From Escherichia coli (GTDB taxonomy: Bacteria; Pseudomonadota; Gammaproteobacteria; Enterobacterales; Enterobacteriaceae): DNA of 64,000 nucleotides. The stretch lies in the NCBI RefSeq assembly GCF_003018235.1, contig NZ_CP027437.1; one strand, written 5' to 3'. Position 1 is the stretch's first letter, and each line of letters starts with the position of its first letter. The notes under the pieces were generated by a model, which saw only the letters and a program-made list of their open reading frames with translations, made no database searches and was not told the origin of the DNA. Of this stretch, positions 42,640 to 42,971 are shown one piece after another. Position numbers and translations under genes: made by a program.

Positions 42640-42971
42640 CATGAACTGTCCAACTTTATGGGGGCAGTCCATCCATGAGGGCTTTTTTTGTGCACAGAAA
42701 ATCCCCTGCTAGGCTGAGGGGGGGGCCGGAAAGCTTTCAGCTTTGAGCCAGTTATTAAAACCCTTTTGATTTGTTAAAACACCTTGCGGTCTGGCAACTG
42801 CAAGTGTCAAACAAGAAATCAAAAGGGGGGGCTAATGGGGAACAAAGAGAGCTTAGCGCACACCCGATTGAACGATAAATCTCACATATTTTTTGCGCCA
42901 AAATACCGAAGACAGGTGGTAAGGTAATCCCCCCGAAAAAACCGGTGCGATGTCCGGGTTAGGAAAGAGGA

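Follow-up and report, generated by a model that had tools for sequence, protein, structure and literature searches.

The closest described systems are the IS200 insertion sequences and the small RNAs made from their left ends. An intact IS200 is 707 bp long and carries an inverted repeat (nts 12-34) that acts as a bidirectional terminator blocking incoming transcription, a tnpA transcription start near nt 40, and a stem-loop (nts 69-138) which masks the Shine-Dalgarno sequence, canonically AAGGGGGU, while antisense to tnpA is encoded art200 (STnc490), an sRNA of 90 nt whose 5' ends map to IS200 nts 153/154 (Ellis et al. 2015, PMC4513863). The sense transcript from the same region, 5'tnpA, regulates invF, PinT, and more than 200 genes in Salmonella (Ellis 2017, PMC5435999; Trussler 2025, PMC12594629). 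Related O-antigen and capsule loci are likewise known to carry debris of insertion sequences between ugd and the his operon (PMC6128206).

Here, we examined a spacer of 300 bp (42672-42971) within a 64-kb stretch of Escherichia coli DNA, hereafter the window. We are highly confident that the spacer is a mobile-element composite at the junction of the O-antigen cluster and the his operon, in which a truncated IS200C persists, most likely as an immobile and decaying relic without a role. An earlier sequence-only reading had called the spacer unassigned and had offered three options, a gene relic, a structured RNA, or a recombination scar, without choosing among them. The label was wrong, because the NCBI annotation pipeline PGAP already calls the same sequence a partial IS200/IS605 transposase in five genomes; what was described is real sequence, correctly described and already explained, and there is nothing new in its identity. 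Each option nevertheless caught a part of the whole. The relic is real insofar as 28 homologous tnpA codons remain, and the scar is that of a deletion, with IS200 sequence joined at 42918/42919 to the his terminator region, but the unifying identity, a truncated IS200C, was missed in both; the structured RNA has its DNA here as Rfam STnc490, but that RNA is a known one, the tnpA 5'UTR with art200 opposite. The apparent structured spacer can now be accounted for base by base as a split ugd terminator, an IS200 front end, a deletion junction, and a his terminator, and it illustrates that IS200 regulatory hairpins can mimic a novel structured RNA once the transposase gene is deleted. The features, together with those on the left border of the spacer, are:

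41212-41226, plus strand: A-run and 5' arm GCCCTCAT (41217-41224) of the bidirectional ugd terminator hairpin, left of the IS3 insertion and partner of 42675-42689.
41227-42671, plus strand: IS3-family element of 1445 bp, a pseudogene, in the loop of the ugd terminator; left border of the spacer.
42672-42689, plus strand: 3' half of the ugd terminator hairpin, consisting of the loop remainder TCC, the 3' arm ATGAGGGC (42675-42682, complementary to 41217-41224), and a T7 run (42683-42689).
42690-42918, plus strand: IS200C-type 5' remnant of about 229 nt (about nt 1-229 of the element) with left end, 5'UTR, and the first 28 tnpA codons, from megablast and alignments.
42700-42725, plus strand: terminator hairpin of the IS200 left end, in decay (nts 12-34 of the canonical element, AACCCCCAGC-TAG-GCTGGGGGTT), which holds the first G-tract, from alignment.
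42755-42844, minus strand: region equivalent to art200, with approximate coordinates mapped from the published 5' ends and length.
42761-42828, plus strand: tnpA 5'UTR stem-loop (IS200 nts 69-138), comprising a large inverted repeat and an apical hairpin (42783-42804), from Rfam, folding, and mapping.
42823-42831, plus strand: Shine-Dalgarno region with the second G-tract (42825-42831), canonical AAGGGGGTCCC changed to AAGGGGGGGCT, from alignment.
42835-42927, plus strand: truncated tnpA pseudogene of 28 IS200C TnpA codons (42835-42918), two junction codons, and a TAA stop.
42919-42933, strand unassigned: deletion junction or filler of about 15 bp between the ends of homology, which holds most of a C6 run (42929-42934).
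42934-42971, minus strand: hisIE 3' UTR, holding what is probably the intrinsic terminator of the his operon, AACCCGG-acatcgca-CCGGTT and then a T-run.

Identity was established by covariance-model and nucleotide searches. An Rfam scan of 41100-43100 returned a single match, RF01405 (STnc490), at 42700-42825 on the plus strand with 111.9 bits (E 3.7e-23), which is above the family's gathering score of 56 and covers model positions 1-124 of 124; the covariance-model search that the sequence-only reading had suggested as a check thus gave a full-length match to a known family. Intact IS200C, IS200F, and IS1541A score 146-153 bits against the same model, also on the tnpA-sense strand, and the strand of the match therefore does not show which strand is transcribed. 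The STnc490 model as built runs along the tnpA-sense strand and begins at the left-end terminator hairpin, whereas the STnc490/art200 of the literature is the antisense transcript. A megablast search of 5426 complete E. coli genomes with the 300 bp as query gave matches in 2553 genomes, and in about 2500 records the match comprised query positions 1-247 (42672-42918) at 91-92% identity, with the underlying genes annotated as 'IS200/IS605-like element IS200C family transposase'. Homology to the IS200 left end (nt 1 to about 160) stands at 91-92% for IS200C, 87.7% for IS200F, and 84.3% for IS1541A. The whole 300 bp occurs at 98.7-99.3% identity in 5 of the 5426 genomes (NCTC10973, 2017.17.03CC, SCPM-O-B-7615, SCPM-O-B-12142, and SCPM-O-B-9504), all with the layout of the window (ugd, IS3-family pseudogene, partial transposase CDS, hisIE) and with the remnant labelled by PGAP as 'IS200/IS605 family transposase; incomplete; missing C-terminus'. 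Two metagenome contigs share this arrangement; conservation beyond the window's own strain was one of the points on which the sequence-only reading had proposed that its interpretation would turn. The core sequence is single-copy in the 64-kb window, where a second IS200-like match was not found. A full-length source element closer than about 92% was found neither in E. coli genomes nor among PLSDB plasmids, and an exact scan of genome contigs for the ancestral state in other species, using a 39-mer from the relic coding part, gave no matches.

Against IS200C of E. coli, the remnant is 91-92% identical over the first ~229 nt and keeps the left-end order of terminator hairpin, 5'UTR stem-loop, Shine-Dalgarno sequence, and ATG, as well as an insertion site that directly follows the T-run of a host terminator. 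Unlike IS200C, it amounts to about one-third of a ~707-bp element, has no right end, a degraded hairpin, and altered bases next to the Shine-Dalgarno sequence, and encodes no functional TnpA. By alignment, then, the segment is a derivative of an IS200C left end and not an intact family member. Compared with the Salmonella tnpA 5'UTR and art200 (Ellis et al. 2015, PMC4513863), it gives the same full-length model match, with lower and upper stems kept and the Shine-Dalgarno sequence partly paired, but scores lower than intact elements and carries mutations in the inferred art200 -35 box and start site. The whole region equivalent to the Salmonella 5'tnpA sRNA (IS200 nt ~40-165) is also present, although the function of that sRNA was shown from intact elements with Salmonella-specific targets only, and the upstream promoter region of the remnant is altered by the first G-tract (Ellis 2017, PMC5435999; Trussler 2025, PMC12594629). 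Isolated IS200 left ends with an STnc490-type structure and no transposase gene also occur on F-type plasmids of E. coli, namely pRHB25-C13_3 (146.4 bits, 1511-1634 of the segment examined) and pDM0133, near iss (90.8 bits, 1472-1593); these differ from the remnant in their truncation points (pRHB25 is cut at the Shine-Dalgarno sequence), their lineages (pDM0133 is 76.8% identical), and their plasmid location. In the band of 60-80% identity, which holds 267 plasmid records, the rows sampled showed the 76.8% fragment of pDM0133 type, carried by E. coli plasmids.

The left boundary was set by aligning the window with four full-length IS200C copies, at deaD-mtr, pheP-ybdG, hemE-nfi, and ccmH-narP. 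Since all four begin (GTGCACAGAAAA...) immediately 3' of the T-run of a host terminator hairpin, we place the left end of the remnant at 42689/42690, and the last T of the T7 run may be IS200 nt 1. On the right, homology to IS200C, IS200F (Salmonella), and IS1541A (Yersinia) runs to ...AGACAGGTG at 42918 and then ends. An IS200 right end was not found, as the sequence from there onward to hisIE is unlike that of IS200C; an internal deletion joining the left and right ends of IS200 is ruled out by the same dissimilarity of 42919-42971. All five IS200C-type left ends examined, including that of the window (42683-42690), adjoin the T-run of a Rho-independent terminator, which suggests that IS200C may strongly prefer the 3' side of terminators as a target.

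Within these boundaries, the transposase gene is a truncated pseudogene. The sequence-only reading had held the spacer to be non-coding in all frames, yet 42835-42927 is an ATG-started ORF of 30 codons, MGNKESLAHTRLNDKSHIFFAPKYRRQVVR, closed by a stop, and the ATG is preceded by a G-rich Shine-Dalgarno region. A Pfam search with the 30-aa peptide, which is too short, gave no match, and its identity was set by nucleotide alignment instead. The complete tnpA, encoding a Y1 HUH transposase of ~152 aa, is absent: 28 of 152 codons are followed by a stop, and residues otherwise conserved have changed. Measured from IS200C, 13 substitutions are derived in the remnant lineage, along with an insertion of 3 nt and a deletion of 1 nt, and the outgroups IS200F and IS1541A agree with IS200C at all but one of the 13 substituted sites; one further change, A>T at 42707, is private to the window. 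The coding part accounts for seven of the substitutions, every one of them non-synonymous (giving E>K, K>E, W>L, C>D by two bases, Y>S, and V>F) and at a position where IS200C, IS200F, and IS1541A do not vary. This pattern has the look of a dead gene. The left-end hairpin is no longer perfect either, broken by C>T, the 3-nt insertion, and TT>GG, with A>T added in the window only, and its predicted energy has fallen from -18.7 kcal/mol in the canonical form to -12.2 in the window and -9.9 in NCTC10973. An IS200/IS605 element without right end and transposase cannot move, and because both are absent the fragment is immobile; with the weaker left-end hairpin and the altered art200 -35 box added, it is most likely immobile and decaying.

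The tnpA 5'UTR keeps its stem-loop. Its inverted repeat, described as imperfect in the sequence-only reading, pairs CCCTTTTGATTTGTT (42761-42775) with AAGAAATCAAAAGGG (42813-42827) over 15 nt at 93% complementarity and encloses, as that reading had also seen, a nested palindrome (cttgc...gcaag, 42783-42804). Folding of 42750-42840, which had been suggested as a check, gave -29.1 kcal/mol on the plus strand (z = -4.0) and -27.7 kcal/mol on the minus strand (z = -5.25), and none of 200 dinucleotide shuffles folded as well on either strand, a structure well beyond chance on both. Mapping of IS200 onto the window (nt 12 at 42700; the ATG, nt 145, at 42835) identifies the structure with the 5'UTR stem-loop, which is kept and pairs into the Shine-Dalgarno G-run at -28.8 kcal/mol, compared to -34.8 canonically. 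IS200C, IS200F, and IS1541A have the same structure; among five IS200-type sequences only 2 of 27 pairs are compensatory, so that sequence identity, for the most part, preserves the structure and covariation adds little beyond the Rfam match. On the antisense strand, the -35 box of art200, an Hfq-binding RNA with its promoter inside tnpA, is placed by its spacing at 42874-42879, as TTTACA (antisense of TGTAAA, nt 184-189); this putative box reads TTTATC in the remnant, and bases at the start site are changed as well. A sigma-70 promoter scan of 42600-43050 found no site on either strand. The only terminator-like call in the scan of the same interval proved to be an artefact of pairing across the junction between the IS3 element and the terminator.

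The alternative that survives best is that the fragment is a domesticated sRNA locus, kept for sense 5'tnpA (the first ~111-125 nt of the tnpA transcript) or antisense art200 and acting in trans on host genes, which we consider unlikely. In its favour is the distribution of changes, as the 104 nt of 42726-42829 hold no substitution (a 1-nt deletion only) compared to 13-14 in the other 125 nt. Under random placement, the chance of a gap that long is between 0.002 (14 events) and 0.04 (9 events, adjacent changes merged). Such a gap misfits uniform neutral decay and could reflect constraint on the RNA-coding part, although the statistic is post hoc and modest. The stem-loop still folds strongly (-28.8 kcal/mol; z -4 to -5). 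Four of the five carrier genomes contain no IS200-like sequence other than the remnant, while the fifth has two such places, and it is therefore unlikely that the core was conserved by gene conversion from intact copies. The regulatory reach of Salmonella 5'tnpA provides a precedent, and the orphan left ends on E. coli plasmids show that such fragments persist elsewhere. Against these points stand the changed -35 box and mutated start-site surroundings of art200, the position of the first G-tract where the tnpA promoter would be expected, just upstream of nt 40, and the absence of a sigma-70-like promoter in the scan of either strand; the known targets (invF, PinT, and SPI-1) are Salmonella and not E. 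coli genes, and the fragment occurs in only 5 of 5426 complete genomes. A more specific form is unlikely as well: that the IS200 front end has been selected as a stand-alone sRNA gene (either 5'tnpA-like, with transcription possibly reading in from the IS3 element upstream across the broken terminators, or a weaker art200), with the core as the signature of selection and slippage in the first G-tract able to tune its level. If true, the domestication of transposon-derived sRNAs seen in Salmonella would extend to an orphan IS fragment in E. coli.

The two homopolymer runs noted in the sequence-only reading, of 8 G (42718-42725) and 7 G (42825-42831), both have their origin in the element. The first is the 3' arm of the left-end hairpin, changed from GCTGGGGGTT to GCTGAGGGGGGGG through the 3-nt insertion and TT>GG; the second is the Shine-Dalgarno G-run, lengthened from GGGGGTCCC to GGGGGGGCT. 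Two native G5 runs, in the hairpin arm and in the Shine-Dalgarno sequence AAGGGGGT, would thus have grown, by slippage or misalignment, as adjacent bases became G or were inserted. Differences within the spacer among the compared sequences are limited to homopolymer tract lengths and the window-only change at 42707. The first tract measures 8, 8, 7, 9, 10, 9, 10, and 10 G in the window, the five genomes, and the two metagenome contigs, respectively, and the second is 7 G in six sequences and 6 in one, while one contig ends inside it. The proposal that the tracts are slippage sites fits this range of 7-10 G, with sequencing error as another possible source. Long-read assemblies often shorten homopolymers, several of the assemblies are probably long-read, and a SPAdes-type assembly underlies at least one of the metagenome contigs, to judge by its name; since both contigs show 10 G, part or all of the spread in tract length may be technical. 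The contig that terminates within the second tract is from a human-gut metagenome, which fits homopolymer G-runs confusing assemblies at this place.

That variation in eight otherwise near-identical sequences, of the first tract between 7 and 10 G and of the second between 6 and 7, would also be expected of a phase-variable switch, in which slippage alters the expression of a neighbouring gene in the style of a contingency locus. We regard this as very unlikely, because no intact gene or recognizable promoter depends on either tract: neither lies in an intact ORF or in a recognizable promoter spacer, the sole downstream ORF is the 30-codon pseudogene, hisIE and ugd both end here, and miscalled homopolymers may explain much of the variation. 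A so far undescribed, independent structured RNA or a protein-bound palindrome with no tie to mobile elements, for which the strong predicted structure on both strands might speak, has practically no chance of being correct and is refuted by the Rfam match, which spans the full length of RF01405, and by the megablast and IS200C alignments, whose homology continues through the structure into the start of the transposase.

For the truncated IS200C, we propose the following course of events. An IS200C-type element would have inserted directly 3' of the ugd terminator T-run, and a later deletion would have removed everything past ~nt 229, fusing the remnant to a point that lies ~50 bp downstream of the stop codon of hisIE; what this deletion spared would be the left end, the 5'UTR, and 28 tnpA codons. 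An IS3-family element would have landed in the loop of the ugd terminator, after or before the deletion.

The left border retains the traces of that IS3 insertion. The IS3-family element is flanked by AAAAAGCCCTCATCT (left) and TCCATGAGGGCTTTTTTT (right), the halves into which the bidirectional hairpin of the ugd terminator has been split. In five other genomes, here called the KSC64 group, the sequence downstream of ugd is 97% identical and the terminator is uninterrupted, AAAAAGCCCTCATAAATGAGGTTTTTTT, and because this intact version matches the two flanks we assign 42672-42689 to the 3' half of the ugd terminator. The T-run counts 7 in the window and 8 in the other sequences compared. The element itself has 25-nt terminal inverted repeats (TGGACTGC.../...GCAGTCCA) and Pfam rve and HTH domains, is annotated by PGAP as 'IS3 family transposase, frameshifted; internal stop', and is 100% identical in four carrier genomes and 99.9% in the fifth. 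The triplets TCT and TCC that flank it may represent an imperfect 3-bp target duplication.

On the right, the informative relatives for the junction are again the KSC64 group, in which homology downstream of hisIE is firm from ~42937, and the GGTAATC within the junction is possibly shared with them as well. The segment 42934-42971 is kept at 87% directly downstream of hisIE in the five KSC64-type genomes, where the stem reads CCCGG/CCGGG. We treat its assignment as the his terminator as only probable, because a simple terminator scan did not call the hairpin at 42934-42971. An exact scan of genome contigs for the ancestral state in other species, using a 35-mer from the his terminator region, gave no matches, and the ugd-wzzB-hisIE intergenic sequences of K-12 and strain S21 are unrelated to the window's sequences downstream of ugd and hisIE. 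A third homopolymer, C6 (42929-42934; G6 on the his strand), lies at the junction just past the T-run of the probable his terminator.

The wider setting of the remnant is an O-antigen locus. A 27.6-kb part of the window aligns collinearly with NCTC10973 at 99.64% identity, and the corresponding region of NCTC10973 is an O-antigen cluster of the O89/O101/O162 family with wzm/wzt and with no wzzB between ugd and hisIE. By this collinearity, window positions 22673-42000 represent an O89/O101/O162-family cluster of the wzm/wzt (ABC-transporter) type, with extra genes between gnd and ugd. The hisIE 3' end (42972-43250) is only ~90-94% identical to most E. coli genomes, and the intergenic flanks, including the sequence downstream of ugd (41158-41226), occur in only 10 of 5426 genomes; this combination points to a recombinant and probably foreign-derived junction where the O-antigen cluster meets the his operon. 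The ugd-his junction of wzm/wzt-type O-antigen loci accumulates insertion-sequence debris. In KSC64, a sister configuration, the same two terminators, of ugd and of his, enclose ~7-8 kb of decayed genes and IS debris, including epimerase and GDP-mannose dehydratase pseudogenes and IS100, IS66, and IS110 elements.
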